Assembly: GCF_964204645.1 (NCBI RefSeq) | Contig: NC_134027.1 | Coordinates: 19,554,560-19,618,559 of the forward strand | Length of the DNA: 64,000 bases | Origin: Tubulanus polymorphus | Lineage: Eukaryota; Animalia; Nemertea | Reading direction: 5' to 3' | Part shown: one piece after another, positions 1 through 62,404 of the stretch | Position numbering within the stretch: the stretch's first letter is position 1 | Layout: every line of letters starts with the position of its first letter | The notes under the pieces: generated by a model | What the model was told of the DNA's origin: nothing | Databases searched by the model: none | The model's input: only the letters and a program-made list of their open reading frames with translations | Program-made: the position numbers and the translations under genes

Positions 1-127
1 TTATATTATCAAAATGATTCTTATAAATAGTTTCTAACAAATCTAATATGAAATGTGTTTTACCACAATTGGTTACTCCAGTAACTAACATATTATGCGG
101 TTCAAATATAAATAAATCTTTATTCAT
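1..127 (-). CDS. A32/FtsK-like DNA packaging ATPase, N-terminal part (runs off window)
   Basis: Manual translation MNKDLFIFEPHNMLVTGVTNCGKTHFILDLL contains Walker A GxxxxGKT; homolog of 23045..23656. Confidence 0.85.
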   Translation of the reverse strand, partial: MNKDLFIFEPHNMLVTGVTNCGKTHFILDLLETIYKNHFDNI

Positions 128-1208: not shown

Positions 1209-1211
1209 ATT

Positions 1212-15798: not shown

Positions 15799-17906
15799 TT
15801 AATCGTCACACTCTAGGGAAACCAGCTTATCGATAGGACGAGTTATAACGCGATTGCCCTTAGTTTTGACTAAAACGCTTCGAACTAGACCATCATTTCC
15901 TGGGAAGACCTGCATAACGCGCCCCAACGGCCAGAAATTCCTAGGAGTGGCATGATCGGCCACTAGGACTATGTCGCCTATACGCAAATTCCGTTTCGCA
16001 TCGAACCCTTTATACCGGGCTTGCGCACGTAAAAGACTGGATTCTTTCACTTGATGATCCTTCGTCAGATCTCGCACGTCTCGAGAAAAGCTCTCGCTCT
16101 GAACGCTTTTCAGAATCAACGTTTCGGCATTCCTAAGCTCAGCCACGGTAATGTGCTTAGGTTTCGTACATGTAGTAGCATTTCGATCCAAACCTCGTCT
16201 ACGGCTGATGACAGCTTCTTTGAGCGACTTAACGAACCTTTCGACCCAAGCAACGACGACTTTAACTTTATACCAGGTCGAGAATTTGTTTACGACTTCC
16301 ATTATAACCGACGGAGTCGCACGTTGCTCGGCAATCTGTCCGAACGATTTAAGCCCAGAATTTTTCAGCTCGGGATCGTCGACCAAAAACGCGAGATCCG
16401 GAGATACGTTCGGCCATTTCGGCTTTTATCCTTTCGAAGAAACTCCGGTCCAAATAACCAATTCGACGTGCAGGTCATCTGGTGAGCAGGAAACCCCCTG
16501 GAAACGTCATAAGCAGGGTTAGACTTGCCATCGATAAATTGCCACTGCGATGGACTCGACGCGTCGTGGATTACCGCCAACTTATTAGAAACGAATGTCT
16601 TGAATCTTTTATCGCGATTCCTGATATATTTAATGACGGTAGTAAAAACGGAATCATCGACCGGTAATTCTAAATCATTCTTTATCGCTTTATCGATATT
16701 CACGGACACCACGGCAGCAGACAATTCGAGTCTGGGTATCGATACAGTTTTCAATGGAGCCAGTCACGATTTACAAGTCATGAGCGCAGTGTGTATTTCG
16801 CCGAGTTCATTTTCGACCCTCATATAGGACACCGTGCCGTAACCAACTTCGGACGCATCGGAAAAATGATGAAGTTGTGTATTCACTACACGACCGAAAC
16901 CAGGCGGAAATAAACAACGCGGTATCTTTATTTCCTCGAGCAACGAAATATCCTCCAACCACGCGTTCCATTTATCTACATAGACGAGTGGGATAGGGTC
17001 ATCCCAATTGAGCCCTAGCTTACACAGCTCTTGGCCAATAATCTTTCCGGGAAGCATTATCGGCGCCACGAAACCAAGAGGATCGTATATCGAGCGAGTC
17101 ACCGACAGCAGACCGCGGCGAGTTAACGGGCGAGGTTTCAGTTTGACTTTAAACGTGAAAACATCATTCTCCATATCCCATAAACATCCAAGCGCTCGCT
17201 CGCTGGGCAGATCATTTGAGCCTAGCTCTCTGAGACTAGCTGCTCTCTCCTCGGGTGGAATAGCCTCAAGTAACGCTCTGGAATTCGACGCAAATTTCGT
17301 GAGATTAAACCTGCCCTTTCGTAATAGAGTCTTTACGTTTTTCGCAGTTCTTATTGTGTCGTGTTCATCGTCTAATGATTTCAAGCAATCGTCGACGTAG
17401 AAGTCTTTCCTCACGGTATCAAACGTTGTCGTGTCAAAATCATCTTTATTGTCTTCGGCCGTTTTTTTTAACGCGTAATTACATACACATGGAGAAGAGA
17501 TCGCACCGAAAATATGCACGTTCATGCGATACGGGACGGGTTCAATAGCCAGGTCTCCATCTTGCCACCGCAAGAACCTCATGGCGTCACGATCCCTGCT
17601 CGGCACTCTGACTTGGTGAAACATATTTTCAATGTCAGCCATAAATGCAAATCGGCCTTGACGGAAACGCATCAGGACCCCCACCAAAGCGTTGGTGAGG
17701 TCAGGACCCTGGATAAAGCACATCATTCAGTGACACATCCCTGTACTTAGCGGAACAATCATACACCACACGCAGTTTCCCAGGTTTCTGCGGATGGAAA
17801 ACTGGATGATGCGGTAAGTACCAGATCGTCGAATCTGGAGATTCATCACTTAAACGATTCGGAACGACTTCGGCGAAACTACGTTCGACTAATTTATTAA
17901 TATAGT
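15799..17906 (-). pseudogene. BEL/Pao pol (RT, Pao RNase H, C-terminal domain); integrase core deleted
   Basis: WYLPHHPV, QGPDLTN, ADIENMFHQV, FYVDD, HHFSDASEVGYG, IPRLELSAA, NFWPLGRV..PGNDGLVR. Confidence 0.92.
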
Positions 17907-21960: not shown

Positions 21961-21966
21961 AATAAG

Positions 21967-23052
21967 ATGAAAAAAGAACAATATTTAAGAGAGTTATATT
22001 ATAACCCAGAGAGTGAAGTATCATATTCTAACGTTTTAGAATTATGGAATAAAATTAAATCTGATAATGGTGGTATAAAATATAGTGAATTGAAATCATG
22101 GTTACAAAATCAACCAACATATCAAATCCACAAGAAAATGGATAAAACTTATTTAACAAGAAAAGTTATGGTTTCATATATCGATCAACAATGGCAAGCA
22201 GATTTAATTGACATGAAGAACTTAGAAGAATACAACAAAGGATATTTCTGGATACTGAATGTTATAGACATATTCAGTAGATACGCATTGTCAATTCCAA
22301 TCAAAAATAAAACTGGTATAGAAGTGACAAATGCTTTTAAATCTATATTTAAAGAAGCTATTCCAGATAAGATACAATTTGATGAAGGTAAGGAATTTTA
22401 TAACAAACATTTCAAAAAACTATTATCTGATAACGATGTAGATTATTTTTCAACACTCTCAGATAAAAAAGCATCTATTATAGAAAGGTTTAATAAAACA
22501 TTGAAAACTAGAATGTGGAAATATTTTACTGCTAATGAAACATATATTTATATCGATGTGTTAGATGATTTGGTGAAAGGTTATAATAATTCTAAACATA
22601 GTTCTATAAATATGAAACCTATACAAGCTAGAAAAGAAGATAATTCAGAAATAGTTTGGAATATTTTATATGGAGCGTTTGTTACACATGATTTCGGAGA
22701 ACCAAAATTTAAAATTGGACAACACGTAAGAATATCTAAATATAGAAAAACATTTTATAAAGGTTATACCCCTAATTTTACAGAAGAAATATTCAAGATT
22801 AAAAAGATAATATTAACTAAACCATTTGTTTATAAATTAGAAGATATAAAAGATGAAGAAATATTAGGTTATTTCTATGAACAAGAATTATCACTTGTAC
22901 CAAATCCAGATGAAATAGAATACAAAATAGAAAAAGTATTGAAAACAAAAACTCTTGAAGGAAGAAAGTATTCTTTGGTTAAATATAAAGGATACGATGA
23001 TAAATTTAATGAATGGATTTTATCTAGTAAAATTAAAAGAATAAATGAATAA
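21967..23052 (+). CDS. rve integrase with chromodomain
   Basis: DDE motifs as in 120..1208; intact 361 aa. Confidence 0.95.
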   Translation: MKKEQYLRELYYNPESEVSYSNVLELWNKIKSDNGGIKYSELKSWLQNQPTYQIHKKMDKTYLTRKVMVSYIDQQWQADLIDMKNLEEYNKGYFWILNVIDIFSRYALSIPIKNKTGIEVTNAFKSIFKEAIPDKIQFDEGKEFYNKHFKKLLSDNDVDYFSTLSDKKASIIERFNKTLKTRMWKYFTANETYIYIDVLDDLVKGYNNSKHSSINMKPIQARKEDNSEIVWNILYGAFVTHDFGEPKFKIGQHVRISKYRKTFYKGYTPNFTEEIFKIKKIILTKPFVYKLEDIKDEEILGYFYEQELSLVPNPDEIEYKIEKVLKTKTLEGRKYSLVKYKGYDDKFNEWILSSKIKRINE

Positions 23053-31528: not shown

Positions 31529-33914
31529 TTAACACGTTAGAATTCTTTTCATTATCTCGTTCTCTTTTGTTTCTTCTCTTTTAAATTTTAAGTATTCATC
31601 TAAATTGCAACCATAAGCAACTGTATGAATTCCATCATCTAAAATATATCTTTTATCATCAAATGGGTTTAGACTTATCTTTTCAATTTCTTCAATAAAC
31701 ATTTCATGATCTTCAGATCTTAAACATCTCATCTTATGTTTTCTAACTTCTTCATTGAATATACAATTGATGTAATCTTTGAAATGAATATTCTTTTCTA
31801 CTACACTTTTGGTTATTCCTTTTAACTTTTTAGCTTCATGTTCTTTAGTTTTATATGAATACATTTTAGATCTAATACCAATGAATTCAATCATTTCTTC
31901 ACCACCTAATTCATCTTTGAATTTACCGGGAACTTTTTTATTATCATTGCTAAACAATTCATGATCTTTAGGATAATTACTGAAATCAAATTGATGTTTT
32001 AATGTTTTTAAATCATCTGTTATGTTATCAGTTTTTATTTTTAATATGTAAGAATCGGTATCAAAATATAATATTTCTATATGTTTTTCTCCAAAAAGTG
32101 GTTGTAATACATTATAATAGAATTCATACATTAGTAATTTTGATAATTCTAAAACTGATGCGCCAACATAGATTGGTTTATTAAATTTCATAGAAGTTCT
32201 TCTCATCTTAACTGCGGCTAAATTTTCATCAAATATTCTGTTACCAATGAACTTAGGATATGATTGTAAATGTCTAATTCTTTTACCATTAATGACTAAC
32301 TCAATATCATTTCTATTTCTAATATTTTCACAAGTCTTACCATAGAATGCATTATTCATTAACTTGAAGAAATCTTTTTCGAAATCAGTTTTAGCTTCAG
32401 TTCTCTGTTTGGTGTTAAAATCTATATATTTTTCTAACCACTTAGATTGTCTAAATGAAATATATCTATGTACTTTTTTTAGAACCATTCCTTGATTTAG
32501 ATAAAACTTTAACATTCTATAATGTACTACATAATTATATTTATCTTCTTGAGTTACCATTAACTTTTCTGTATGAATATGATTTTCGGGTTTAATTCTT
32601 TTTTGGTAATTTGATAATTCTTCATGTGTTACAGTTTTGTGTTCTGGACAGTATGCTAGATTTCTAGATTTAAATTTTTTATCTTCAGGATATTCTAAAC
32701 CTACAACAAAGAAGTAACCAGTATCTGAATCATCTGCAATATCTAGAATTCTTTTCTTCCAATCAAATTTATCATTATTTTCATTCTGTAAAACTTCAGT
32801 TAATTCAAATACTCCATAAGGTTGTGGTTCCATCATTGCCCAACCATACAAATTATTTGCATCTATATATAATAACTTATATCCAGGGTTATCATTTACA
32901 TTGAAATATCTATCACCTAATACACCTGAAACTCCTCCTCTTATAGATTTTTCAAATAATAGTAACTGATCTATATTTGTTAACAAATCCATTTTTATAT
33001 CTGTAAATTATAATCCACAATCCCATGTTAATCCTGGTGATGAATAACAATGACAAGGATCAATATTGAAATATTTTAGGTTTACATCTCTAAACCTTTC
33101 GAATATATCGGTTAATAATAATACATCTGATTTTAAATATTTATCTACTAATTGCCCATGATTTTCTATTTTGAAATGATTCCAAATATTCAATGTTCTA
33201 TTATAGACTTCATCTTTAACAAATTCATTTTTTAATTCATCATAAAATTGTTCTTTTAATAATTCAGTTATGTTAAAATCATTATGATTTTTATAAAATG
33301 AATATGGAATTGCGCCTTTATATCTCATTAATTGAAAATCATCATTATTTGGGTAGTGTTGTTTTAATATCTTTAATTCATCATCAACTAATGATTTTGA
33401 TAAGTTATCTAATGAACTATTTAAAAATCTATATGAATCTATAAATCTTAGGCAACCAAATTGGAATGATATATAATTCTCAGATGTTTTAGCTAACATT
33501 CTAAATTTATAAGTTGGTATTTTATCTTTTGATCTATTTGAATTTAATCTTTCTATTTCATTATTAATTTCTTCTATTTTATGGCATAACTGTTTGATGA
33601 ATAAATGTGCATCATATCCTGATAGATTATGAAATATAACTGGTACAAAATTAATTTTCTTGTAAGTTACAATTTTCATGCGCTGCGCCTCTAAACTTTC
33701 CATTCAAATGATCATGATCTCTAACTCTTTTATCTTTAAAATTAAATATCTTTTCACGATAATAACATTTATCTACAAACTCAAATTCTTCTTTATCTTC
33801 TTCTGTCATTATAATTTCTATATTTGTATTCAATAATTTACTAAATCTTATTTCATATTCAATTAATAAGTCACAAAAATGATTGATAACATTTTCATTT
33901 CTATAATGATAATA
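31529..33914 (-). pseudogene. Duplicated C-terminal two-thirds of pPolB
   Basis: ORFs 31529..32992 and 33008..33703 are near-identical to 35970..38144. Confidence 0.9.
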
Positions 33915-35969: not shown

Positions 35970-38900
35970 TTAACACGTTAGAATTCTTTTCATTATCTCG
36001 TTCTCTTTTGTTTCTTCTCTTTTAAATTTTAAGTATTCATCTAAATTGCAACCATAAGCAACTGTATGAATTCCATCATCTAAAATATATCTTTTATCAT
36101 CAAATGGGTTTAGACTTATCTTTTCAATTTCTTCAATAAACATTTCATGATCTTCAGATCTTAAACATCTCATCTTATGTTTTCTAACTTCTTCATTGAA
36201 TATACAATTGATGTAATCTTTGAAATGAATATTCTTTTCTACTACACTTTTGGTTATTCCTTTTAACTTTTTAGCTTCATGTTCTTTAGTTTTATATGAA
36301 TACATTTTAGATCTAATACCAATGAATTCAATCATTTCTTCACCACCTAATTCATCTTTGAATTTACCGGGAACTTTTTTATTATCATTGCTAAACAATT
36401 CATGATCTTTAGGATAATTACTGAAATCAAAATGATGTTTTAATGTTTTTAAATCATCTGTTATGTTATCAGTTTTTATCTTTAATATGTAAGAATCGGT
36501 ATCAAAATATAATATTTCTATATGTTTTTCTCCAAAAAGTGGTTGTAATACATTATAATAGAATTCATACATTAGTAATTTTGATAATTCTAAAACTGAT
36601 GCGCCAACATAGATTGGTTTATTAAATTTCATAGAAGTTCTTCTCATCTTAACTGCGGCTAAATTTTCATCAAATATTCTGTTACCAATGAACTTAGGAT
36701 ATGATTGTAAATGTCTAATTCTTTTACCATTAATGACTAACTCAATATCATTTCTATTTCTAATATTTTCACAAGTCTTACCATAGAATGCATTATTCAT
36801 TAACTTGAAGAAATCTTTTTCGAAATCAGTTTTAGCTTCAGTTCTCTGTTTGGTGTTAAAATCTATATATTTTTCTAACCACTTAGATTGTCTAAATGAA
36901 ATATATCTATGTACTTTTTTTAGAACCATTCCTTGATTTAGATAAAACTTTAACATTCTATAATGTACTACATAATTATATTTATCTTCTTGAGTTACCA
37001 TTAACTTTTCTGTATGAATATGATTTTCGGGTTTAATTCTTTTTTGGTAATTTGATAATTCTTCATGTGTTACAGTTTTGTGTTCTGGACAGTATGCTAG
37101 ATTTCTAGATTTAAATTTTTTATCTTCAGGATATTCTAAACCTACAACAAAGAAGTAACCAGTATCTGAATCATCTGCAATATCTAGAATTCTTTTCTTC
37201 CAATCAAATTTATCATTATTTTCATTCTGTAAAACTTCAGTTAATTCAAATACTCCATAAGGTTGTGGTTCCATCATTGCCCAACCATACAAATTATTTG
37301 CATCTATATATAATAACTTATATCCAGGGTTATCATTTACATTGAAATATCTATCACCTAATACACCTGAAACTCCTCCTCTTATAGATTTTTCAAATAA
37401 TAGTAACTGATCTATATTTGTTAACAAATCCATTTTTATATCTGTAAATTATAATCCACAATCCCATGTTAATCCTGGTGATGAATAACAATGACAAGGA
37501 TCAATATTGAAATATTTTAGGTTTACATCTCTAAACCTTTCGAATATATCGGTTAATAATGATACATCTGATTTTAAATATTTATCTACTAATTGCCCAT
37601 GATTTTCTATTTTGAAATGATTCCAAATATTCAATGTTCTATTATAGACTTCATCTTTAACAAATTCATTTTTTAATTCATCATAAAATTGTTCTTTTAA
37701 TAATTCAGTTATGTTAAAATCATTATGATTTTTATAAAATGAATATGGAATTGCGCCTTTATATCTCATTAATTGAAAATCATCATTATTTGGGTAGTGT
37801 TGTTTTAATATCTTTAATTCATCATCAACTAATGATTTTGATAAGTTATCTAATGAACTATTTAAAAATCTATATGAATCTATAAATCTTAGGCAACCAA
37901 ATTGGAATGATATATAATTCTCAGATGTTTTAGCTAACATTCTAAATTTATAAGTTGGTATTTTATCTTTTGATCTATTTGAATTTAATCTTTCTATTTC
38001 ATTATTAATTTCTTCTATTTTATGGCATAACTGTTTGATGAATAAATGTGCATCATATCCTGATAGATTATGAAATATAACTGGTACAAAATTAATTTTC
38101 TTGTAAGTTACAATTTTCATGCGCTGCGCCTCTAAACTTTCCATTCAAATGATCATGATCTCTAACTCTTTTATCTTTAAAATTAAATATCTTTCCACGA
38201 TAATAACATTTATCTACAAACTCAAATTCTTCTTTATCTTCTTCTGTCATTATAATTTCTATATTTGTATTCAATAATTTACTAAATCTTATTTCATATT
38301 CAATTAATAAGTCACAAAAATGATTGATAACATTTTCATTTCTATAATGATAATATTCACTTTCAATTAGTTCTGGATAATCAGATTTAATATATAACCC
38401 GAAAGCAGCAGCTGATTGATGAATCTTTTTAATAGTATTTGTTTTTGGTGGTTCATCTGAAAAATCATTTTCATTAGAATTTAATTTCTTTCTTTTATAA
38501 TATATTTCTTTTCTATCTTGATCAGTTAATTCTTTATTTAATGATTCAAAATCTCCATATATAACAAATGGAACTTTATTTTTGTAATCATATTTTTTGA
38601 ATTCTAATATTTTATCTTTTTCATTTGGAAAAACTAATTTACAATAATCATGATTTTCACATAATTGTTTATGATTTAATAATGCACTTTCATTACTGAA
38701 TCTATGTAAACATTTTCTACATAGATATATTTTATTATCAAAATCATTTTCTGATTTAAAAAATAAATCAATTCTTTTAATCCACATATAATGATTCTCA
38801 TAATATAGTATATCTATAACATCATTTGAATCATAATCTTTTGATAGATATAAAGGTTCTAATGTATAATGTTTTATATTGTTACCTTTTGTATTTGGTA

Positions 38901-45492: not shown

Positions 45493-48400
45493 ATTAATAC
45501 TCGTTACAGACGGCTGTAGTTCTATCGTTGAGGTCAGCGGAGGTCCTACCCGCTCTAATGAGGAGGTCAGCTTGCGCATCGTATCAGTTCTGGACGCGCG
45601 GTCCGGGGGGGGGGGGGGGGCGGTGGGGTGGTGGGTTCATCACGCTACCAAGAATAAGACGATAAGAGGAGAGGAACTTCGCCCAGCCGTATTACTCGCC
45701 TTCGAGAGAAGGACGAACGGACCCGGACAGACCCACTGACGGACCACGTAGACACGAGGAGGGGGAGGTCGCGGGGAGCCTTAGTCCTTAGACATTTTTT
45801 TTATTGAGCGTCGTCCCGTGAAGCCGGGCGTACGGGAGCCTACCGGTGCAGACACAGCTGCAGGAGTTGTATGTTCTGGTGAGTATTTTATTAGTGATTT
45901 TGACCAGGGGGCAAATGGTTACCGTGTCTGGGAAATCCATTACACACGGAAAACGAGTCATGCTGTTCACCGGCAAGTGCTGCCACCTAATCACCTGATG
46001 CCGCGTTCGAGATCAGACGACTATAATCCGTACATGTAACTAGACAGAAAAACGAAAAATGTTAGGCTTAGTGAAGTCTTTATGGAGTTTTTCTTTGCTT
46101 ATTTTGTTTGTTGGAAGTTCGTTAACATCCAACAAACTGTATTTCAACACATCATTACCTCCGGTAGTTATAGGTATGTATATATATTTCGGGATATAGT
46201 CAAGAAGTGTTGCGTTTCGACTTGTAGAGTTGAAGTTGTTGTTGGCGTTGCGCTGACGGTTGTTTATTTGGCAATCTGCCATCCCCAATGCCAATGGCTA
46301 TTGACGTATCCGTATGGTTACTACGTGATATTTTATATAATTTCCAAGACTTGTGTTTTAAAAATGCGAACGTAAATAATCAACATTTCTTCTACAAAAT
46401 GCTTTAAAACAAAAAATTATTTTTTGAGCTGTTATTTATCATTGCATCGATTAGCAATATTGTGTGGTTATGCACTAGTCAATGAAAGTTCTTGGCCCCC
46501 GTCCAACGGAATGAAAAATAGTGATCTAAAGCGCCGGGACAGAGGCGATCCAGCGAAAAAAATCAGTGGAGCGCACAATGGTAACAGCGCAGCTCTCCTT
46601 TAGCGACTAGATTTACCAAAAAGTTAACGATTTATTTGAGCACGTTCTTTTATGCAGCATCTTTAACTGTCCAAGATTACACAGGTTAAAATTCAATGCT
46701 ATTTGCGTCGGAAGAACTTATCTCGCCAAGATCCAACGCTTTGTTCGGTAGTTATGGTAAGGATTTCAGGTCACGTGATCAAAATGTGTCATAGGCTAAT
46801 TAGCGTTTTCCACGCTTCAAATTTTCAATCGCTCATAAAAAACGTATTCTATATCTGATTGAAGCCAAACTTGCTCAGTATACTCAATTTACCGGTTATT
46901 TGTTGTGGTGTAAATTTCATGAGTGTATCTTGCCTAGTTACGGAGCAATAAGTCGTAGTTTGGCGCGCGTCGGCTCATTTCTAGGAAACAAGATGGCGGC
47001 CATGTTTGTTCATGCATTTTTCAAACACGTGAAAAACGCATGCAATTTTTTGGGTCAAATCCACGAGCCGGCTGCTGATTGGCTGGATATTTGACCTCAG
47101 AATATTTTAAGAACATGTTTCAAGTAGAGCATGTCGGTGCGTGCAAGTTTTGGTAGGCCCTGTATCACTCGGAAAAAGTCGTAAACATAATTCAAAGTGC
47201 TCATACGCTAAAATTAATAATTTTAACAACTTGCACTCTACTACATGATAAAATAAGATACTTTATATATTGTTTTCAATTATTACTTTTAAGATTGATT
47301 TAGTAGTCTTTCGCGGATTTTGACCTAAAGTTGGCAAGGTGTTTAAATTGTTTACATCCTGGTCACTGCCGGCTCACACCGGCTGCCAGCTGATCAATCA
47401 AAACACTTCCTGGTTAATTTTTACCACTCTAAATGTCAATTTAGCAAGTAAAACGTCACTTTAGCAAGTAAAACGTCACTTTCACTCAATAAACTCATAC
47501 TTTATTACGAAATCGGCAATATATAAGACGAATAATGGTTAGGCCTACCCAATTTAAAAACTTTGAGTATTTTGCACAAGAATCCAAGTTTTGTCTAAAT
47601 TTTAGCTCATTTTTTGCTAAAAAGAAATTTTATTTTTCCTATCTGCTTCACCTTTAGGTAATCATCTCATCTTGAATACTAGGATATCCCTCTGAAAAGC
47701 AGTTGTTATTCATTTGTTCATGGTTTTTCAATTCCAATTGTCGACCCTTTCGCTAAATAACTGCCGCTGCTAGGCCTAAAATACCCACCAACCAATGGTT
47801 AATCAAATAGATTCTAGAGGATTATATTATCAATTTTCTTTTTCATTCGAATGACTTGCCTAGAAGGAGACCTTTAATTAGATACCAAACATGACATACT
47901 TTTGTAAAATTGACTTTCCGATGAAATATTGACGCAAAACAAGATGGCCGCCATTCCTCGAGCCTCAATTTGAGATATCATGATATAGATATTTCATGGG
48001 TAAATCTGTTAGGGCCTAGGGATCTCTAAAGAAAAACAAAGGCTTTTCCATTCATTTCAATTTGATTTAATTTCGGAAAACCATGTAGTACGTAGATCTC
48101 TTCAACGCTTTATCCTATTCTTCTGCGGCAAGTGAGTATCTGAAATATAATGATATTATTAGTATCTTTTATTTCAGAAGGCTTTAAAACATTGAACTTA
48201 TCCACTAAGATTAGTTATTTCAAATAATAAAGGTCTATAAGGCCATATCGAATCAACTAAATACATTAAAGATGTAGTTAATAAGATTCAAGATGGCCGC
48301 CTTGATACTTACCTTATGGTTACCATGGTAATCAGTATCACCCTGGTGCACGATATCTTCGGTATATTATCTCAAAATTGATATTCCATGTCTTAAGTAT

Positions 48401-49222
48401 CATTTATCTTGAGAAATAAACTATAGTATTGCGTGTTAATGGTTATAGAAGTGGGTATTAATTACATAATTAGTATGCAAATTAGCCTAACTTACATATT
48501 TTTGCAATTACTTACATGAATCTAAAATTACTTTGTATAGACAACTTACTGACCAAGTTAGGTTTTAAACAGATAAAAATTCTCGGAGTTATATTGGTTT
48601 TAATGTTGAATTTAATTCCTTTATCTGGCTAAAAAGCAACAAAACCTAGACACTTCCTGTCTGATACTTTCATTGGAAATGAACTAAAGTGAATTGCGCA
48701 ATCGAATGACAGAAATACTCAAATTTCCACCCTTAGATTGCTTATAACTTTTGAACCGCTTGACCAATTTTGATTCTGTAAAGTGCTGTATGCTTATGCT
48801 ATCCCCTTCTTCATTTTAAGCTATTAGAAAGACACATAGAAATTTTCAACCTGAAATCCCTAGTTATGGGCTTTCAAAGACGAAACCCCTTGAAATCTTG
48901 GTTAGATCAAATTTGTGTTGACCCGGTTTTGACTTCCATCATGACGTCATAACATTGAACGAGGTGGATCAGCTGGTGCGCGTTATTTCACAAACAAAAT
49001 GGCGGCACGATTGAATAGGTTGATATTCATCATTTCTAGCGCAAATACTGATACTTAAGGCGTATGATATAACAGTTTAATGTGTGCGATGTGTTCAATG
49101 ATTCATCTAGTTTTGATATCCCGTGCGTAAGGTAACGTTGCATCAAGATATCTGCCAAAAATGTGGTTTCAAAATGCGGAAATTTACTTCCGTGTTCGCC
49201 ACACAGCTGATTTACTGATAGC

Positions 49223-49597
49223 ATCGGATTTTTAGAGATGAGTCTGATAGGCCTATATACACAACTGGAATAATTGTTTTATCATCATTAATTGAAGCAT
49301 TAGCGATCCGTTATGGAGCCTGATTATTAGTATTAGTTTGTTTACTGCGGCACAATGATGAGCGTTCGCTTTGAAAACAGTCGTGTACAGTCGCTGATTG
49401 ACTGATAGGCCTACAGTGATATCATCAGATTTTTAGAGATGTGTCTGATATACACACGACTGGAGTAGGCCTGCTTGTTTTAATATCATCATTAATTGAA
49501 GCATCAGCAATCCGTTTTGGAGCCTGATTATTAGTATTAGTTTGTTACTGCGGCACAGCGATGAGCATTTGCGTTGAAAACAGTCGTGTACAGTCGC
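49223..49597. repeat. ~200-bp-period direct duplication
   Basis: 49223-49394 resembles 49424-49597. Confidence 0.8.
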
Positions 49598-49699
49598 ATA
49601 GGCAATAGGCCTATCGCATTATACTCTCGTGTTCACTGCGTGTATGTATCAGTTTATACTCGCGCCACGGTGTAGGTCGAGCGTACCAACGATTTGTCT

Positions 49700-52185
49700 G
49701 AGTGAGGATGTAAGCTACTTCCTATCGTGAAATTATTGAAAACCATGTCAGTCGATAAACTTTTTGTTTCGTCAGTAACTGGTACTGTCCTCAAATTTGA
49801 AGAACTTGGGAGCTTCTGTCCTGATTGGTCCGCATATGATAATGAAAAACCTGCGATGAAACTCAGGCTCTCACCAAGTTTGTACCGTATCTTATCGGGT
49901 CACTCAAAGTTTTAGTTGTTTTACATCATTCAAGGGATGTATTACAATAATGAATATTTGTTCAGACAAAAGACCCATGATCAATTTTTCGAATCTCGTG
50001 AAGTCAGTTATCAAAAGTTCGCACTGACCAAAATTGAGTCCTTTCCATATATTTTTTTCTTGTTTAATTTTCAATGAAATAAATTTTTGCCTACCAGTAC
50101 TGTAGGCTAAGTGACTTTTACTTCCCCAAACCAGTTTGGCAAGCCACTGGACCATTGGTCCTTTATTTCCTAATCTTAGTGTAGTGCATTTGATAGGACT
50201 AAAGGATAGCTGCCATAATTTGGACCAATCGTCTAGTCTATTTAGGTCAGATTGAAGGGCTAAACAGTCGTTGATATTTCGAATCTCCCCGTATAATTTA
50301 CTGTTGACTCGTCCGTGAAGAGATAAGATTTGTAGGGTCTTTTACTCCTGCGGTGGCGTCGTTTATAAAAATTCAAAACATGATAGGGCCAAGCACTGAG
50401 CCTTGCGGAACTTCGCTTAACACCTCCGTTACTTGTTGTTTTCTTCCCTTCAAGAAATCAGAAGTCCAATCTATGACTTCACCATCTTAAGGCCTACCAA
50501 TACTACAGAGTTTGCTTATCAAACATTGGTGAGGAACCCTATCAAACGCCTTCTCGAGTCTAAGTAGATTGAGTCAACCATACCTTTTCTCTCTAATATA
50601 CTGGTCCATTTCTCGAGACACGCTGAGAGATTGGTCTGACAATTTCTTTTAGGTACAAAACCATGTTGCGCTGGGGAAATCAACGAGTAAGTGTCTAGGT
50701 GCTGCATAATCTTATCCCTGACGATAGTCTCGAGCACTTTGCAACAAATGCAAGTGAGGCTTACAGGCCGGTAATTTTCTACTTCATCCTTACGTCCTTT
50801 CTTGTCAATGGGCTTTATCAGACCTATTTTCCAGTTCATTGGTAAGAGACCAGAGCCGACTGATTTATTAAAGAGGAGCGACAGCGGTGAACAAAGCTCA
50901 CTGGACAATTCTCTGAGTACTCTCGGATGAATATTGTATAGGCTAATTTATATTTTTCTCTTCTCGTTTTATTTCTCACCGATGCCGGTACATCACTCGA
51001 CGGCATCAAACTTTTGATCGTTTCGTTCAACTCCGGGACTTTTGTATACGTTTAAGTTGTTCAAATGTTCCTTACTAATTCAGCATCTATGATATATCAC
51101 TTAGGCTTGTTAACACCTTCGGCGCTAGATCGGGAAGGCTCGACAAATCTTATCCATGAACACGCTGCTGAAAAAAGTATTAAACATACCTGCTTTCTTT
51201 TTGTCGTCAGATATTGTGTGACGGTCATTGTACTGAGGGGCGGTATATCTGGTTTCTGTTTGGTTCTGGATCAAGTATACCTCCAGAATGCCTTGGGGTT
51301 TTTTTTTCACCTTCATCACAATGGTCTTCTCATATGATCTTAGGGCTCTTTTAATATCTCTTCTCGTCAAGTTTCTTATATTGATATAATCAGCGTATGA
51401 CTTATTATCTTTAGTGGTCAGATATCTCTGCCAGGCTCTCTGTTTCGATTTGACTTTCCTGAGAGCTGCGGCCTTCATCCATTGGGCTTTTTACTTTCAT
51501 CGCGGTCATGAGTAATTTCATTGCTGGGTACAAACCTTCTAATTAAATCATTTATCGAATCTCTTATTACGTTCCACCTAGATATTACAACCAAGCTTGA
51601 TATACAGTCGGGCAAGTTTTGCTTAGACAGTTCGTCTCTCATTTTGTTGTAGTCACCATGTTCGAAATTTTACATACACTTTCTAGGGCTTTCTTTATAA
51701 TTTACTGGGATAATTGTGTCGAAAGTAATGATCACATGGTCGCTCGCTCCAAGAGGGGGTAGTGTCGTAAATTAACAATACAGTTGTGTCCTTTTAAAAC
51801 ACGACATCGAAAATACTAGGTCCCTGGTTATAACGATGCCTGGCTTATCTCTCTTGACATCTTAAAATCAGATTATTTAAATTCTACTCTCGTCAGGGGA
51901 TGTGTTAGGGCTTCTGTAAATGACCCCAACAATCAACTGAGCATTTTCATACTCTAATTTTATCCAAAGATTGTCATTAATTTCGTCAGACGATGGGAGC
52001 TCAAGGTAATCGATACCGTGTTTTACATAGATTATAACTCCTTCCGCCGATACTTAGAAACTGGTAGATGCATCTATGCAGTCACGTGAGTAGTTTTTCG
52101 GATATACCTCCATTAGTAATATTATATCCGGGTTGTTATTACAAACAGATTCGTGGAGTTTATTTGTTAGGGTGTCTCCGTTTGT
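49700..52185 (-). pseudogene. CR1-clade LINE ORF2 (AP endonuclease plus RT), decayed
   Basis: PDIILLMEV, SDHVII, NYRPVSLTCICCKVLE, QHGFV, SEVPQGSVLGP. Confidence 0.88.
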
Positions 52186-53616
52186 CTCATTTTTAGGCCA
52201 GCCGTAGGCTGAGCCTATTACTATACAAATGGAGCGAATTTAAATGACATGGTTTCCACACAAAAGGCTCTTTTGCTTGCCAAGTGAGGGCATATTCGAA
52301 AAAATCACGTATTTAAGCGTAATCCATTCTCGGAATCGTAGCGAGCAGAATTTTGAAATAGGGTCTCATAGAAATGTTTTCTGCATTTTTCACGAAAGTT
52401 AAATCGGGAAAATTTCAATTTTTATCAGCCAATCAGGAAGTTGTGTCTTCCCTGTGATTGGTTTATCTGAAAATATCAGCAGCTGTTCACGTGAATTATC
52501 GCGATTTCATTACTGGCGCTTTTGCGCATGATGTCATGTATCAACACGCGACAATACTTCCGCGTTCGCTACGTGTTCGCTGATTGGCCCATTTACTGGG
52601 AAATTCCACAGAAGCCTAATGTGGTTTGTTACAATCGCTGTGATTGGCCCGACCCGATTCTGGCATGGCTTTAGCTTAGTGGGTTCGAATCCCTTTACGG
52701 GTGAAGATGATGGATCCTATCAATATCTATTGAAACAAATAAGTTTCCCGGTTGGGCAGCCGCGGATATCTACAGTACCGGATGTGTTCCGGTTCGATAT
52801 TTCGAGGTTTCTTTGAATTTTGGAGTGATATTGAAATCCGGTAAATACCAGCGGTAGATTGTGAAAACCCATTGCATGATATTTGTATTACTTAATCAAC
52901 GAAAAGCGTCTGGGCCGCGCCAGGAGTTTTCGTGATTCAAGTAGCGCAATAGCCTACTTCTTCGTCCACCTCAATTTTCACTCCGCCGATCTCTGACACG
53001 GCTCTGTCCCCGTCGGCGCTGTGATTGCACTTTCGTACCACCAAAATTTTTTATTTCTATATCAGGGAGGTCTGGAGAATAAAAAAGTCAAAATTTGGAT
53101 ATCACATAGGCCTGATTTCATCGAATAAGTCGACCATGGTCGTTACGTTTCCGTACTTATTACCACCTAAAACCGTCTGAACAATTTTGTCACAACCAAC
53201 ATTTCGTTTACAGAAATCAGGTGTTCACGTGAATCCGCGGTATCGTCTACTGTTTTACTTCCGGGTTTTATTTTAAGGTTTAAAATTGTATTTCAAGATC
53301 GATTTCTATGAAATCTTTAGTTGATTTGGTGTTTGGGAGGAATTTTTATTGGCTCTACAGAAAATTCATCCTTGACAATTGCGCAAGGTTCGCGAAAAAA
53401 AGGTTTTACCAAATCGGGTGTATGACCTTGATATGCTAATTAGCCATGTGCCCGAATTGCAAATTCAATCAAATTTTATTCTGCCAAAAAATGTTAAATA
53501 CAATTCGCTTTCCGAGAGTTAATGGTATGCTGCATGGAACAAAGTTGTTTTGAGATGGGTCTTGAAGCTATTGAGGTCGAGAGATAACCATCTAGATAGT
53601 TCGTGAGAGTTCCAAA

Positions 53617-53935
53617 GTTTTGAAGACGCTTCAAGGTAATGTCTTGATATTTGTTTTATACGTGTATCTACCCTAGACACATCTTCAGGCCAAAAACTGG
53701 CCCTGTCAGAATCAAGATGGCCGACTGGCAGCCATTGTTGTTCGCCAAAATCAGCACTTTTTACACATTTTTGAAGTTTTCGAGGGAAATTTTGAAGACA
53801 CTTTTATCAATAACCTTGATCATTCGTATATATTTTTATCCCCCGAGGGCCCATCGGCATGTGAAAAATTGAGTTGATCGGACTCAAGATGGTCGTACTG
53901 TGACCTTTTTTGTTCCCAAAAATGTCAATTTTGGC
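53617..53935. repeat. Interspersed repeat copy (second copy at ~62798-63115)
   Basis: AGTTTTGAAGACGCTTCAAGGTAA...CAAGATGGCCG blocks are shared; ORF translations are near-identical. Confidence 0.8.
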
Positions 53936-54389
53936 CTGAATTCTGAGTACTGTAGCTTTCTAATGGTGCGCCATGTTTCATTGCAATTTGTAATGGGTAT
54001 TCTTTGGAAAGGGATCTTTTATATCCGAGAGGGTATTTTTGACCAGGCAATTATGACGCACTTGGCGGCCATCTTGGGGTCATCAGTTCTCATTCGTAGG
54101 TGGAAAAAAAGTTTTTCCACATCATAATTGATACTTAAGCATATTTTGCTACTATAATCAATTGGAAAGTTGTAGCTCATGACATGTTCTATGATCGAGG
54201 TGAGTTTCAAGCTCATTGGTTTTTTTTATGGCCACCAGGGGGCGTTGCACAATACAATAACTTAGTATTTCTATATTACATTCGTTCCTGCTGTCTGTGT
54301 TAACACACGATTTTACTATGTAAATGATATTGAGCAGGGAGTGTATATTGATAAATATAACCCACAGATTACATCATTTATAAAAAGCA

Positions 54390-55000
54390 AATCTGACAGG
54401 CTAACCATTGTGCCCCTTGGGGCTCTTGTTACAATTTTGTTATTTACGATTTTTATAAGGGTTTCACCATTGGCCTTCCTTCGCTCTAATTCCCCTCTCA
54501 GTATAGCAAAATCCTCTTCTTTTGGATCTATCGAGAGCAAATTTTGTTTCCGCTCCGTCGTCATCTTTTATTTCACCCCCTAACAAAGTCATATACCCTG
54601 TCTCTGTGAGCCATATCCACAAACACCACCGTCATCGGTCTACTTGGGTTATTTTTATCCCCCATACGAAAAACTTTTTTATGTCTGGGTGCCTGTGATA
54701 ACCATTATGTTGGAGTAGTTCTAGAATGTACTTCAAGTCGTCATTTTTTCTCCTGTGCATTTGTCGCTCGTTAACATTACCGGTAGCGGGGAAAAAGTCC
54801 CGATCGAGCGATCCTAGCACTGGTGCTTTGAGCTAATTTTCATTTCCCGGCCCCCGTAGGGCGTGGATTTTCATTGACTAGTGCATTACAAATACTAGAT
54901 TCTGTAATTGAATCCTCCTGTCTAGGTTTACACAACTTGGTTAGCATAGAGTCAGTTCCAACAACCAAACAGACATTGCTATATAGCCTACACCATAGAA
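54390..55000 (-). pseudogene. LINE ORF1 C-terminal remnant, probably partner of ORF2 at 49700-52185
   Basis: MTTER...LRGELERRKANGETLIKIVNNKIV is typical of CR1 ORF1 ends; same strand as ORF2. Confidence 0.55.
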
Positions 55001-55821
55001 TTGTTAGCCTAGACGTGAAAATTCTCAAGTAGAAATTGGAGAATATCATGACTTGAACATGCAACCCGTGGATTGCGCCCTAGTCCTACTCTCTCTCTAT
55101 CAACGTGTTCAAGACAATGAACTCTTTTTAACATATAATTCATAATCCTCAACCTAACCCTAACCTTGAACCCTATTCCTACTTCTAAAGATAGGCCTAT
55201 GACATAAAACTATAATCTTATGATATGAATATTTTATATGTTTTTCCTCCTAAAAGAGCGGCATTCATTGATGTTAGTTCATACTAATTTTCTAGAGCAA
55301 CTGGCCTGCGGTTAAGGTATCTGAAGATAATTGCATAGGCTAATGTCATGACGTGAATATCTTGTCCTTTTCTCGTCATTGAAATAACGTCATGATCTTG
55401 AATTTAGATGATTTATTTTCAACTTCTATTTTACAACTCCAACTAGAAAAACTGTGTGCTTAACCATATTTTTGTTTATACATAATGGAGAGAGTACTAC
55501 TGTATGAGTACGCTGACATGTTTTGACGCTGACATGTTTTGACACTGACATGTTTGTGACACTGATATTACTTTTGAGCACAAGAAATTACCTAATCCAA
55601 TTAATACAAACAACTCATCGATGTTGATGCCCCATTTCACATATCAATATCAGGCTGATTAATTTTCAAGAGAATTATATTTAGCATTATTAAACAATAT
55701 TAAATCCACAATAAACGTTAATATACACTCCGATAAAAATCTAAATTAAGACAAAGAAATGTACTGCATGATACTAACCCATTACATATTTGGCATTGAC
55801 CTCCTTTCGATATTATTTTAG

Positions 55822-55978
55822 TCCCAGGCGATGGTGGGAGTCAGATGGAAGCGAGACTTAATAAAAGTTCGGTCGTACATTATTTATGTACTAAGAAGAC
55901 AGATTACTGGTTTGCATTCTGGTTGAATATTGAACTTCTCGCACCATTAGTGTTAGATTGCTTTGTGGATAACATGAG
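55822..55978 (+). CDS. PLA2G15: PLA2G15/LCAT-family lipase, exon 2a (157 nt)
   Basis: AG|...|GT; PGDGGSQMEARLNKSSVVHYLCTKKTDYWFAFWLNIELLAPLVLDCFVDNMR; TACTAAC branch point at 55772-55778. Confidence 0.9.
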
Positions 55979-56008
55979 GTGAGTTGTTCTTTCCCTTAAT
56001 ATTTGCAG

Positions 56009-56165
56009 TACCCGGTGATGGTGGCAGTCAAATCGAAGCGAAACTGGATAAAAATCAAACGGTAGCATTTTACTGCCATAAAAAATCAGATACTTGGTTT
56101 CCACTGTGGTTGAATATTGAGCTGTTAGCTTGGCCGGTGGTCAAATGTTTTGTAGATAATATGAG
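56009..56165 (+). CDS. PLA2G15: PLA2G15/LCAT-family lipase, exon 2b (157 nt, alternative)
   Basis: AG|...|GT; PGDGGSQIEAKLDKNQTVAFYCHKKSDTWFPLWLNIELLAWPVVKCFVDNMR. Confidence 0.9.
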
Positions 56166-56192
56166 GTTTGTACTATGAATGTTGTGTGCTTA

Positions 56193-56412
56193 GGCTAAAA
56201 AAAATTAATACCTTGTTTCTCCGCTCTGCTGAGCTTAAATGTTGACCCGGCCGGCCGCCTATCTACCCTATACATTACTTTTTTAAAAATCGTGATCAAT
56301 TTTACCATAACAGACCCGGCCGCTATAGAAATGAACTGTTTATAAATTTTATCAAATTTTACAAAAATGACCCGGCCGCTGCGGAGAAACAAGGTATCAT
56401 TTTTGTTTAGCC
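56193..56412. mobile_element. PIF/Harbinger (Tourist-like) MITE
   Basis: TIR GGCTAAA..ATACCTTGTTTCTCCGC / GCGGAGAAACAAGGTAT..TTTAGCC with TTA TSD on both sides. Confidence 0.8.
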
Positions 56413-58628
56413 TTATCTACCGTGTTTCAAAAATGACTGTCTACTGCACTTTTACGGCGAGCTCATGTAATCTTGAATATTGTAGAGTCATTTCAATTGC
56501 ATTCTGAAAGTATTTTAGCAACCATTTCCGTTAATTTCACTAAATTATTGTTTGGTCAGGGGCTCGTTGGATTCGTGCCTGTTAAAAGGTGATTTGGTAC
56601 ACATTTAGCAAGTTTTCAAAATATTGGTGCTCCATATGGAATTCAAAACAAAAATGTTACCAGTGCTTGGTAAATTTTACCGGGAAATGAAGCTTACATA
56701 GCCAGTTCCATGCCATCATGTCTTTTGTGACTTAGTTTAGTTGAACAATGTTGTACAATGTGCATTAATCAATTATTTTTAACAGACTGCCAGCGCTGAT
56801 ATTTTCATTACCAATCCTCAAATCCGAACAAAGCTTTAGGAAGTTTTTGGAGTCTGTGTTGGTTTTTCCTGTAGGCCTAATTATGTACATGAAAACTACA
56901 ATGATAATCAATCACTTTGACTAATGGATATTTTGAAAAAACTTCCTAGTGAGTTCCCTATTTCTTTGTTAGCTCCAATTTAGGCCTATTGGATATTACT
57001 AAGTATTTGCTTTTGAATGTTTGAAGAAGTGCTCAAATTTTCCTGGTTTATTCATTAGAAATGCATTAAATCTTGCCTTACATGAACGTGGCCAACTTAA
57101 AATATCGACTAGTTCGGACGAAAGTAAAATCATCTGACTTCCTGTAATTTACTTACCATGTACTTTCCTATCCTTAACTTGGACCAATGTTTTGCAGTCT
57201 CATTTTGTCCGAGGTAGGCCTGGTTAACTGTATTAAGGCACTGGTTTTTTTTACAACTTTTTAGGAACAGCTGTGTTGATCCTAGCAGAATGGTCCTGAG
57301 AGTAACTTTCTGTTAGCTCTTGGTGGCACAAATTGTAACCAATGTATATAAACAGCTGATAATTTAGGAGGGAAATAGGTGTTGGAATTGATATGGCAAG
57401 TTTTGTCCATCAGCTCTTTTAAAGCTGTTTGGAAGCAGTGGGAGAAAATATGTGCAAAATTTCAATGAATTTTTTCCCCATTCGATACTAATTGATGCTT
57501 GACCTATTTTGATGATGACATCAGTGATGCCCTATATCAAGAACATAGTATTGATCGTTCTGCCATGTGCTAGTGAGTCAAAGGGAAAACCCATTACCAT
57601 ATCATCTAAGTTGAACATGCTTACTACACAGCGCAACATGATTTCATCTTGTTTATACTGTTTATACGTTATTGCAAATCCAAGAAAAATCGATTTTTGT
57701 GCACAATGTACTCAGTTAATCCTACTGGTCCTCATCCTCGCTTGCCTTGGTCTGATTGCCGCCCGCCCAAGCTCACGCCAACATTAACCCTGGCAGCAAA
57801 CCCTTCATTGGTCTATTACAATGCCAAAAATTTCTCGGGCGAACAGGTTAATGCCCAACGCCCACCAATCTATATATCTAGCCGATCAAATGAATTGTAT
57901 TTCTCCGGCAAGTTTGCTCTATGAAAACCACACATCTGATTAACTATAAGATATATAGACTGGTGGCCGCTGAACGGGAACCTGTCCGCCCAAGAAATCG
58001 TGGGCGATGTAATAGAAGACCATTGAGGGATTTGCTGTCAGGGTTTGTGTTGGCACCAGAGCTTTGTGGCGGGCAGCTGGAAAGTGAGGATGACTGGACC
58101 TATGGTCCTATATTATTTCATCTAAAAAAAAACAACACATTTTTACACTTGATACTGCTGTATTACTGGATCCAGACTACAACTATTTTGTAATCAACTA
58201 ATAGACAACTGGAAAATCTTGTTATACATTGAAAGTTCCTTGTAACCAGTATCAAAATATATTTTTTGTTTGCCAGTATTAAATATCAAATAGTCTGAGC
58301 AGATTTTTACATATCGTCGAAATTTTGATATGAAATTGTTGTAGCGTCAAACGTACGTACTGTATCTGTTGTTAACAAGGTTCTGTTGTTCAGACTGACT
58401 TACGGATCGACTTTATATTAGAGCTAACTAAAAGATAGGATTAACTCCTAAAGTCTATTTATTTTTGATTGTCCACGATCTTTTTGGGATATTTCGCTTA
58501 ATTTTGTGTGTGCATACCTCAAATAGGTAGGTCTTAATCGAGTCAGTAGAGTTGTGCAGTCCAGATTTTAAACTGACTCCTAAAATGGAATAATCTTGAC
58601 TAAACCTTGATTGATTACAAAGTGCTAT

Positions 58629-58709: not shown

Positions 58710-59194
58710 TTACTAGTTAGCCAATCTATGTAACTATTCCTAATAAGACTGCTTCTTCGAACCTCAGGACTCTAAAGTCCTCTTGTTGTTCTAAGCTCTA
58801 AACTAGACTATCCGTACAGATTTTCTTAGCTTCTGGCGGTCTCTTCTAAGCCACGGTCACACAGAGATGATTTGGCCCGGAACAGGCCTGAGTCAAATTT
58901 GGCCCATGCTAATTAGAGGCGCTCTCACACTGAAACCATACCTGAACCACTCAATACTGAACGATGCTCAAACACAGCGAAGTGAGTCATTTCCGGAACC
59001 TGTTGCAATTCACGTTCTATGATTTGACCTGTGCTAAAATTTAGCTCAGTCTAAGTGTATTTTTCGTCAGGCACGGGTACATTACGCACCAGTTTATTCT
59101 GGGTCAAAAAAGCTTTACGATTGCGGCTATTATTGAAATAATAGTGGTTTTTAGCCCACTTGAGACTATCCGTCCATCCGTCCGTTGTAGCGCA

Positions 59195-59730
59195 TAAAGT
59201 GTTCTATGATTGGGATGAGTTTCAAGTTCATTGTTTTTTGTATATGGCCACCAGGGGGCGTTGAATAATACAATATCTTAGTATTTCTATATTATATTTG
59301 TACCAATACATATTTTGTTACCGCAATCACATGCAAAGTTGTAGCTCATGACATCATCTATGATTGTGGTGAGTTTTAAGGAAATTAGTTATTCTATATG
59401 GTCACCGGGGGGGGCGTTGAATAGTAGAATAACCTGGTATTTCCTTATTATATTGGTACCTAGGCATATTTTGTTACCATGATCAATTGCAAAGTTGTTG
59501 TTCATGACATGTTCTATGAATATGGTGAGTAAAAAGGTTATTGGGTTTTGAATATGGTCACCAGGGGGCGTCGAATAGTAGAATAACTTAGTATTTCCAT
59601 ATTAAATTGGTAACGAGGCATTTTTTGTTATCACAATCAATTATAAAATCGTAGCTGCTGACATGTTTTATGATTGTATTGAGTTTCAAGGTCATTAGTT
59701 TTTGTATATGGTCACCAGAGGGCGTTGAAT
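59195..59730. repeat. ~155-bp tandem repeat x4 with a CTCF-like motif (single related unit at ~54150-54280)
   Basis: ATGG(C/T)CACCAGGGGGCGTTG-type motif at ~59245, 59398, 59554 and 59709. Confidence 0.8.
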
Positions 59731-59971
59731 ATTGAAATTGTTAGATTGTTGAGCATTTGAAACCACTTCCCAAGTGGGCATGGTGTCCCTGGACCCCTAG
59801 TTGTAAATTTCTTTCTGAGATCGCTATAAATCAAATCAAAAACAAATAGGCATTGTAATTATATCTTCATGGTAATCCCTGTTGACATCTTGTATTTCTT
59901 TAGTTAGAAATTTAGTGTTATGGCTGTGGTTAGTAGCACTTTCAAAAAACTGTTTAAAAATTTATTCTCAG

Positions 59972-60090
59972 GTTGGTGTATGACAACAAAACCCGCGCTA
60001 CATTTAACTCACCAGGAGTGGAAACGCGTATTAATGGGTTTGGCAATACGTCAGGTGTTGAATATTTGGATGAAAGTCAATTATCAATTA
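59972..60090 (+). CDS. PLA2G15: PLA2G15-like exon 3 (119 nt)
   Basis: LVYDNKTRATFNSPGVETRINGFGNTSGVEYLD; phase compatible with exon 2a or 2b; AG/GT ends. Confidence 0.9.
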
Positions 60091-61520
60091 GTAAGTCATT
60101 TAAACTCACAAAATCAATGATCAGTAGCTACTAACTCTAGTACTAACTCTCAAGGATTGTGATAGGATCTTTTAAGTTCAACTAAGTTATCCAGGGATGA
60201 AAATCTTCCGCGGATTTCCGTGGTTGGAGGTCCATTTTTATCATTCTTGAGATGATGAAGATCCGTTGAGAAAATGATGGGGGGCTAGGGTGTTGGGGAA
60301 AAGTTGAGAGTTAGATCGTAGCATACTTAAAGAACAGACCGTAAAAGCGTCTCTAGACCCACTGTGAGATCAATGATACTATGATATACGTGTAATAGCC
60401 CAGCAGAGGAAATCTATATTTAGAATCTGTGGTCGCGTATCCAACAAAGCATAGCCTACGTGACTGCAATTAACTGATATCTATCTCAGTGTAGAGTTAA
60501 CAAATAAAAACCCACAGTTAGATCTGTAAAAAGTTTATTTTCTTGACAGTTTTCGATGATTGGGCTTTGTTTAAGCCTCGAAACTGTCTAGAAAATAAAC
60601 TTGTACAGATCTATATTTGTTATCATAGCCTACGTGCTTAATAAAAGTTGTCTTTGTTTTAATTCAGGCACAATGTGCTTGTCTTGAGTGAAAGATTGGA
60701 AGATTATAGGTTAAGGGCTCCTCTTGGGACCCTACTATTTGTTCATTTAGGTATGAACATGTTCTAGTTAGTGATTTGGATATCGCCAGAGCCATCCTTT
60801 TCATGTACTCCAGACATGAACAACGAACGATCAACCATGTGGCAGCAGTCTTATTTTGTCATTGGAAAATGGGCCTCAGTTGCGCCAAAAACTCCTTGAA
60901 ATTTCAAAATTTTCTTGGGGGAGGTCCCCTTTAGGGATATGCACCTTTAGCCAGCAGTAGTTACCCTAATACATTTATTTCAAATTTGTCTGCGTTTTTT
61001 AAACGTTTTTTAATCTTTTTTCATCCCTGGTTATCATGTTCATCTTAATCTACTTTAATTTCAATTGATTCTACTTTTCTCTGAAGAACCAACACTTTGT
61101 TTTCTTGATTAACTAAACTTGAGTCCGAGCAACCACAGAAGGCAGTACTTCTATCTAACATCTCGGTGACTTGACAATAATATTACGAAAATCCCACGAA
61201 AAAGTCCAAAAATTCCTGAAGATGACTATGAGAATATAGTTGAAACGTTGAATAAACAACATGAGCTCAAGGAAACATTTTTAGACTTAATTTTTTCATC
61301 TTTACTGTTGGATTCTTCGTAATATATTATATAGCGAAATGTATTATTATTTGCATAATATATTATATTATTATGTACATCATTTAGTAAACTGTTGTGT
61401 AATCTTGAATTCTGTATTTTCTATATAGTAACTATACTTTTCTATTTATTGTACTGCCAATTGACGGAATTTGAAGAAATATGTTAAAATATGAAATATG
61501 TTAGAATTTCTTATTTTCAG

Positions 61521-61619
61521 CAACGTATTTTCATGAGATAGTTGTAGAGATGGTGAAATGGGGTTATGTTCGTGGACGGTCTGTCAGAGCTGCTCCATTT
61601 GACTTTAGACGTTCAGCCA
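61521..61619 (+). CDS. PLA2G15: PLA2G15-like exon 4 (99 nt)
   Basis: TYFHEIVVEMVKWGYVRGRSVRAAPFDFRRSA (APYDWR-like motif); AG/GT ends. Confidence 0.9.
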
Positions 61620-62173: not shown

Positions 62174-62404
62174 ATGAAATGAGCGACTATTTTATTCAAC
62201 TGAAAAAACTAATCGAAGAAACTTACGCAATGAATGGCAATAAGAAGGTAGTGATAATACCCCACAGTATGGGTAATATCGTTGCGCTGTACTTCCTGAA
62301 CAAAATAGTCAATCAAGCATGGAAAGATAAATATGTCAAAACAATGATTACACTGGCTGGACCATGGGGTGGTGCTTCAAAATTAGTCAGATTAATGGCG
62401 TCAG
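62174..62404 (+). CDS. PLA2G15: PLA2G15-like exon 5 (231 nt) with catalytic Ser
   Basis: KVVIIPHSMG nucleophile elbow, WKDKYV, GPWGG, MASG|GT; later exons are outside the window. Confidence 0.92.

Follow-up and report, generated by a model that had tools for sequence, protein, structure and literature searches.

Organization of the locus

The 64,000-nt stretch of the genome of the nemertean Tubulanus polymorphus analyzed here (the window) contains five coding exons of PLA2G15 (Table 1). A query with exon 2A identified, with 100% identity, protein XP_074644583.1, annotated as lysosomal phospholipase A and acyltransferase-like, and the translation of exons 1-2A-3-4-5 reproduces 240 of 240 residues of this entry. 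The gene product contains an LCAT domain (Pfam LCAT, E 6e-82) and the nucleophile motif, and its best structural relative is LPLA2; when isolated, exons 2A and 2B were not recognized by Pfam.

Exons 2A and 2B are neighboring homologues with the same length and phases, and code for the same region of the protein: both match residues 12–62 of the human PLA2G15 chain (E 2e-18 for 2A and 1e-12 for 2B). The first-pass annotation, made from the sequence alone, had described two 157-nt copies with intact AG/GT sites, a retained cysteine pair and open frames, separated by only 30 nt, and every element of this description was confirmed, the spacer being exactly 30 nt. The acceptors are TTTTAG in 2A and TTGCAG in 2B, the donors GTGAGT and GTTTGT, respectively, and the cysteines occupy exon positions 22 and 46. 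The copies share 33 of 51 amino acids and 105 of 157 nt (67%). Splicing of exons 1-2B-3-4-5 likewise leaves a frame open across 240 codons. As anticipated in that annotation, joining both copies shifts the frame, with a premature stop at codon 94; retention of the spacer leads to a stop at codon 92, and skipping of both exons to one at codon 85.

Table 1. Coordinates of the features in the window.
Feature	Positions	Strand	Remarks
Coding exon 1, signal peptide to PVVI	46059–46173	+	tblastn 100% to P0001 1-38; ends in phase 1
Intron 1, 9,648 nt, to the 2A acceptor	46174–55821	+	
Branch-point-like motifs in intron 1	CTAAC (A at 55777), TTGAC (A at 55799)	+	motif matches only
Exon 2A, 157 nt	55822–55978	+	form present in an RNA contig and in RefSeq
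Spacer 2A-2B, 30 nt	55979–56008	+	
Exon 2B, 157 nt, intact duplicate	56009–56165	+	none spliced seen
Trp29Leu variant site in 2B, TGG to TTG	56096	+	window has G; contigs from X1, X2 and X3 have T
Exon 3, 119 nt	59972–60090	+	equivalent segment varies in gastropod isoform pairs
Exon 4	61521–61619	+	
Exon 5, nucleophile motif PHSMG	62174–62404	+	later exons lie beyond the window
Integrase-chromodomain ORF	120–1211	-	
Integrase-chromodomain ORF	21961–23052	+	
polB ORF	10104–11240	-	
polB ORF	33008–33703	-	
492-aa ORF	31529–33007		
492-aa ORF	35970–37448		
Pao/BEL retrotransposon	about 15800–17700		

The first part of the window (1–40000) is an AT-rich block, with ca. 24% GC, containing several Polinton/Maverick-like pieces. 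Within it, an ORF on the reverse strand (8695–9408) showed a hit to an intein splicing domain (E 1e-5, below the cut-off), begins just after a YFD motif and adjoins protein-primed DNA polymerase B ORFs (9357–11240); judging from its sequence, it seems to be an intein within a polymerase of the Polinton/Maverick type. Additionally, a 154-nt unit occurs in 3.5 tandem copies in intron 2 (59184–59731), with another copy in intron 1 (54110–54289), and there are imperfect, MITE-like inverted repeats at 57758–58077 (72%, about 300 nt) and 60519–60613 (78%, 97 nt).

Presence of the duplicate in sequencing runs

The reading of the duplicate as an assembly or haplotype artefact is refuted by contigs from three sequencing runs, and we assign it a negligible probability. 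A single 465-nt contig from run X1, which may be the assembly's own source, covers 2A, the spacer and 2B, and contigs from runs X2 and X3 lie on both exons at equal depth and extend across their splice sites; besides, 2A and 2B are merely 67% identical, which also argues against this explanation. The contigs of these runs, which represent two samples, agree in a T at position 56096, leading to the change Trp29Leu in 2B, and are without differences in 2A. Position 29 is aromatic in 337 of 340 homologue rows (a redundant set).

Geometry of the pair and predicted splicing outcomes

The spacer consists of the 2A donor, followed without a gap by the 2B pyrimidine tract and AG. Its lone branch-like motif has the A at 55999, 9 nt from the AG, and the next A is at 55972, already within exon 2A; the best branch-like motif serving 2B would thus sit inside exon 2A. 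Steric interference is expected for donor-to-branch distances below 50 nt (PMC5740500), and the entire spacer is shorter than this. In the account of C. elegans given in PMC4165533, which cites a minimum intron of ca. 40 nt, excision of the spacers of egl-15 (14 nt) and let-2 (30 nt) was never seen. By the considerations of these two sources, inclusion of both copies faces a double barrier, the short spacer and the frameshift. The spacer would be unspliceable, since the 2A donor and the 2B acceptor lie too close together to accommodate a branch point. Since both exons are of length 3n+1, the steric block and the frameshift both apply, and the latter would act as a second safeguard, with nonsense-mediated decay (NMD) probably removing mRNAs that carry both copies or neither. 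The spacer length and the outcomes for the frame support the view that only one copy is permitted per productive mRNA.

Duplex energies of the donors were calculated against the U1 motif. The 2A donor (GAG/GTGAGT) is the strongest of the gene, with -10.8 kcal/mol, versus -7.5 for that of 2B, which falls in the range of donors 1, 3 and 4 (-8.6, -5.6 and -7.5, respectively). Exon 2A would be the default winner, and we infer that its dominance stems from its leading position in the pair and its better donor. Just 3′ of the 2B donor there is a very high-copy short repeat (56190–56430, with summed contig depth of 1e4 to 3e5); this insertion, situated 25 nt from the donor, could influence the use of 2B.

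Competing base-pairing elements around the exons, as expected for exclusion of the docker/selector (Dscam) type, were not found: local folds around the splice sites had z values of -0.32 to 0.89, nothing unusual, and the introns contained no complement longer than 10 nt.

Selection on both copies

The two copies differ at 22.3 of 31.6 synonymous sites (pS, 71% of them) and at 28.7 of 121.4 nonsynonymous sites (pN; Fisher p 2e-6), with a pN/pS of 0.33 (bootstrap 0.20–0.54). This corresponds to a dS of ca. 2.1, near saturation and with a lower bound of 0.88, and a dN of 0.28. The resulting dN/dS of ca. 0.13, a comparison proposed in the first-pass annotation, speaks for purifying selection. The 30-nt flanks of the two exons share 11 of 30 and 9 of 30 bases. 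Sixteen columns are conserved in at least 90% of the homologues (119 of 119 examined), and 2A keeps all 16 and 2B 15, having lost Pro41, which is 94% conserved; 17 of the 18 amino acid differences are located in the 35 variable columns (p 0.004). The family-profile score of 2A exceeds that of 54 of the 119 homologues, and that of 2B only six, placing it in the low tail.

In simulations of neutral decay (100,000 per step, indels omitted), splice sites, frame and 15 of 16 columns stayed intact in 26%, 4% and 0.1% of the cases at 0.05, 0.1 and 0.2 substitutions per site, respectively. This decay is fast in relation to a dS of at least 0.88, which indicates that translation of 2B persisted through most of its history; likewise, an unused copy stays intact only up to ca. 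0.1 substitutions per site, so that any silencing of 2B must be very recent. As judged from their sequences, the copies are old and selected as protein; both appear to have been under purifying selection, averaged over their history, with Trp29Leu as a counter-hint for the present.

These values also bear on the interpretation of 2B as a regulatory decoy or poison exon, whereby joining of 2A to 2B or retention of the spacer would send the mRNA to NMD and tune the level of the enzyme. The stops at codons 94 and 92 agree with this role. Nevertheless, a poison exon needs no conservation of amino acids in its own frame, contrary to the observed dN/dS; the 30-nt intron is under the C. elegans minimum of ca. 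40 nt cited in PMC4165533, and the RNA structure showed nothing unusual. We therefore consider this explanation very improbable.

Transcripts and current use of exon 2B

In run X4, a single 1,643-nt contig of depth 58 lies exactly on 2A, and its loose ends correspond to the 3′ end of exon 1 and the 5′ end of exon 3. This 1-2A-3 arrangement was the sole spliced contig found, in one spliced, RNA-like run available as contigs; the same run contained no contig for 2B and no 2A-2B joint. Since contigs lose rare variants, run X4 indicates that 2A was dominant in that run, and not that 2B is unused. Of the exon junctions listed in the first-pass annotation, 1-2A and 2A-3 were thus found, and 1-2B, 2B-3 and 2A-2B were unseen in this contig set. 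A further run, X5, whose RNA status is a guess, had no contigs matching at 90% or 80% likeness. RefSeq contains the 2A protein only, in a cluster with a single member and without isoform label. Queries with 2B found nothing closer than 69%, either among 5.8 billion clusters (9 hits from 11 candidates) or among 1.84 billion representatives (the best 150 of 328 hits).

We interpret 2A and 2B as, probably, mutually exclusive exons kept apart sterically, of which 2A is the dominant form and 2B a minor, or tissue- or stage-restricted, alternative. The main rival, to which we give a clearly lower probability and hold to be unlikely, proposes that 2B served as a genuine alternative exon during most of its history, was recently silenced and has begun to decay, leaving a gene that is now 2A-only. 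It agrees with RNA contigs limited to 1-2A-3 and a single RefSeq protein, with the occurrence of Trp29Leu in two samples, with the weaker 2B donor, and with a branch that is longer for 2B (0.49) than for 2A (0.28). However, the ca. 0.1 substitutions per site over which an unused copy stays intact are a small part of a dS of at least 0.88, and one RNA-like run seen as contigs cannot reveal a minor isoform; also, Trp29Leu is a single amino acid variant, too little to gauge the constraint on 2B. Regarding the claim in the first-pass annotation of either/or isoforms, the one-copy geometry, the selection of 2B as protein and differences at lipid contacts support the mutually exclusive reading in part, no 2B having been seen spliced in.

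Residues exchanged between 2A and 2B

Position k of the exon aligns with residue k+28 of LCAT; exon 2 covers LCAT residues 29–78 and LPLA2 chain residues 12–62. Exon 2 had been credited with the PGD oxyanion residue and the membrane-binding domain; PGD is identical in 2A and 2B and is thus not switched, and of the membrane-facing surface this exon contains a part only, the remainder lying in exon 3. The Asp of PGD corresponds to Asp13 of LPLA2, beside the oxyanion hole (PMC6027918), and the cysteines kept in both copies to the Cys50-Cys74 disulfide of the LCAT membrane-binding domain (PMC6277198). Simulations and mutants of LCAT identified as lipid-buried residues W48, L64, F67, L68, L70, L117 and A118 (PMC5880497). 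Five of these seven map to exon 2, and two of the five differ between the copies: W48 (Y in 2A and F in 2B) and L70 (L and P). Exons 2 and 3 together hold the equivalents of the lipid-buried LCAT residues W48-L70 and L117-A118.

Other differences affect P69 (P/W), Y51 (T/H) and the residue adjoining the second Cys (D/K), and the N-glycan sequon moves from position 13 in 2A to 15 in 2B. The unusual residues of 2B occur elsewhere in the family, with W41 in 5 of 340 rows, P42 in 11 and K45 in 2, and the same WP at positions 41-42 is present in a full-length family protein of 428 aa. A 2B isoform would present another lipid-facing surface and hence dock on membranes differently. The catalytic site is the same in both forms, any effect of the swap being predicted on membrane docking; a differing lipid preference of the isoforms, as had been proposed, we only infer.

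Exon 2 in relatives and age of the duplication

Searches by tblastn and with a profile, which did recover both 2A and 2B in the window, found no second copy of exon 2 in 80 of 80 metagenome loci. Among 42 loci picked as intron-bearing, 40 contain an exon 2 flanked by AG and GT (157 nt long in 31); 32 have at least 300 nt on both sides, and there are only 22 distinct peptides. Such an exon, mostly of 157 nt, across loci indicates that the exon boundaries are old and that the duplication is not general. None of 197 proteins belonged to an isoform pair differing in exon 2 only.

In a tree of exon 2 (51 columns), 2B grouped weakly with Lineus longissimus and one further relative (94/75); a clade of 2A and 2B was not rejected (p-AU 0.18), and these 51 columns do not date the duplication. 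The tree with the rest of the protein groups the three at 97. Lineus shares seven residues with 2B against 2A and five with 2A against 2B, and the further relative shares four with 2B and seven with 2A. From these sequences, an early-nemertean origin of the duplication is possible.

Apparent switching of exon 3 in gastropods

Six of 12 same-gene isoform pairs vary in the block equivalent to exon 3, and all six are from gastropods: Patella vulgata (XP_050397998/999), P. caerulea (KAK6174414/413), Haliotis asinina (XP_067651148/149), H. cracherodii (XP_071092371/372), H. rufescens (XP_046365940/XP_046366021) and Aplysia californica (XP_005094703/704), all of them gene models (P0021/P0022, P0018/P0023, P0175/P0092, P0113/P0176, P0177/P0178 and P0173/P0087). 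The members of each pair differ in 16–25 of the 43–44 columns of this block and in none of the 332–335 other columns downstream of exon 1. Variation is greatest in the loop around LCAT L117/A118. One form is long, with an extra His-containing loop, and the other is 2–3 aa shorter. As read from annotated gene models, limpets, abalones and Aplysia apparently have mutually exclusive exons at this position; our search found no description of these pairs. A tree of exon 3 (44 columns) did not distinguish one from several gastropod origins (p-AU 0.32).

The other six pairs vary in the N-terminus (Ostrea, Centruroides and Tachypleus), in one residue (Mytilus) or in the C-terminus (Loxostege and Saccostrea). 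The 11 differences between forms X1 and X2 of Saccostrea echinata (P0062/P0170) are all in the last ca. 60 residues, suggesting that this oyster gene has an alternative last exon that arose by duplication.

The gastropod pairs differ only in exon 3, the site of the second lipid-buried loop, and it therefore seems that the membrane surface was made switchable twice in this family. The occurrence of the gastropod pairs suggests that the family tolerates either/or exons next door, which would support the mutually exclusive reading of the nemertean pair. We tentatively propose that the membrane-docking face of PLA2G15 became splice-switchable at least twice in Spiralia, through exon 2 in nemerteans and exon 3 in gastropods, and that the nemertean duplication may precede the separation of Tubulanus and Lineus, the annotated protein of Lineus then containing a 2B-type exon; as a whole, this scenario is doubtful, albeit possible.

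Comparison with known systems

Work on PLA2G15 and LCAT concerns lysosomal lipid turnover and HDL metabolism. If the mutually exclusive reading is true, isoforms that share the same catalytic core and differ only in the membrane face would provide ready-made pairs for testing substrate selection, and natural swap experiments on the choice of membrane or lipid, such as BMP-rich vesicles versus other surfaces. Likewise, the repeated duplication of neighboring exons of this gene, in two phyla, would bring a lipid enzyme into convergent exon duplication, a known pattern in which ion channels are prominent (PMC9741552).

We found no description of mutually exclusive exons in the PLA2G15/LCAT family in a search with subscription journals and bioRxiv supplements outside its scope. 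Neither PLA2G15 nor LCAT is listed in the 10 files supplementing the human catalogue of mutually exclusive exons (PMC5740500), in which the control FGFR2 was found; the supplement of PMC9741552 gave no match either, with the FGFR2 control absent as well.

The splicing of tandemly duplicated exons is in itself an ordinary, already known mechanism. The closest likeness is with exons 9/10 of let-2 (30-nt spacer) and 5B/5A of egl-15 (14 nt) of C. elegans, which are also adjacent homologues of equal length and phase, separated by less than 40 nt, and pairs of this type share with 2A and 2B a conserved core with differences on the surface (PMC4165533). In contrast, the C. elegans pairs were validated by RT-PCR and all five short-spacer clusters described in that source are 3n (PMC4165533), whereas 2A and 2B are 3n+1 and use of 2B is unseen. 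Human PLA2G15 (LPLA2; PDB 4x90) and LCAT (PDB 4xwg and 5txf) belong to the same family and have in common with the nemertean protein the positions of Asp13/Cys31 and Cys50-Cys74. The gastropod pairs resemble 2A/2B in that the same gene gives two isoforms differing in one homologous, membrane-facing block; nevertheless, their block is exon 3, from a separate duplication and with forms of unequal length (by 2–3 aa), and that of Tubulanus is exon 2. Finally, the mutually exclusive exons of coq-2a/coq-2e also concern a lipid-pathway enzyme of an invertebrate that has two splice forms, although its fold is unrelated and the change in substrate choice was demonstrated experimentally (PMC7434440), whereas the effect of 2A/2B is predicted, and on docking.
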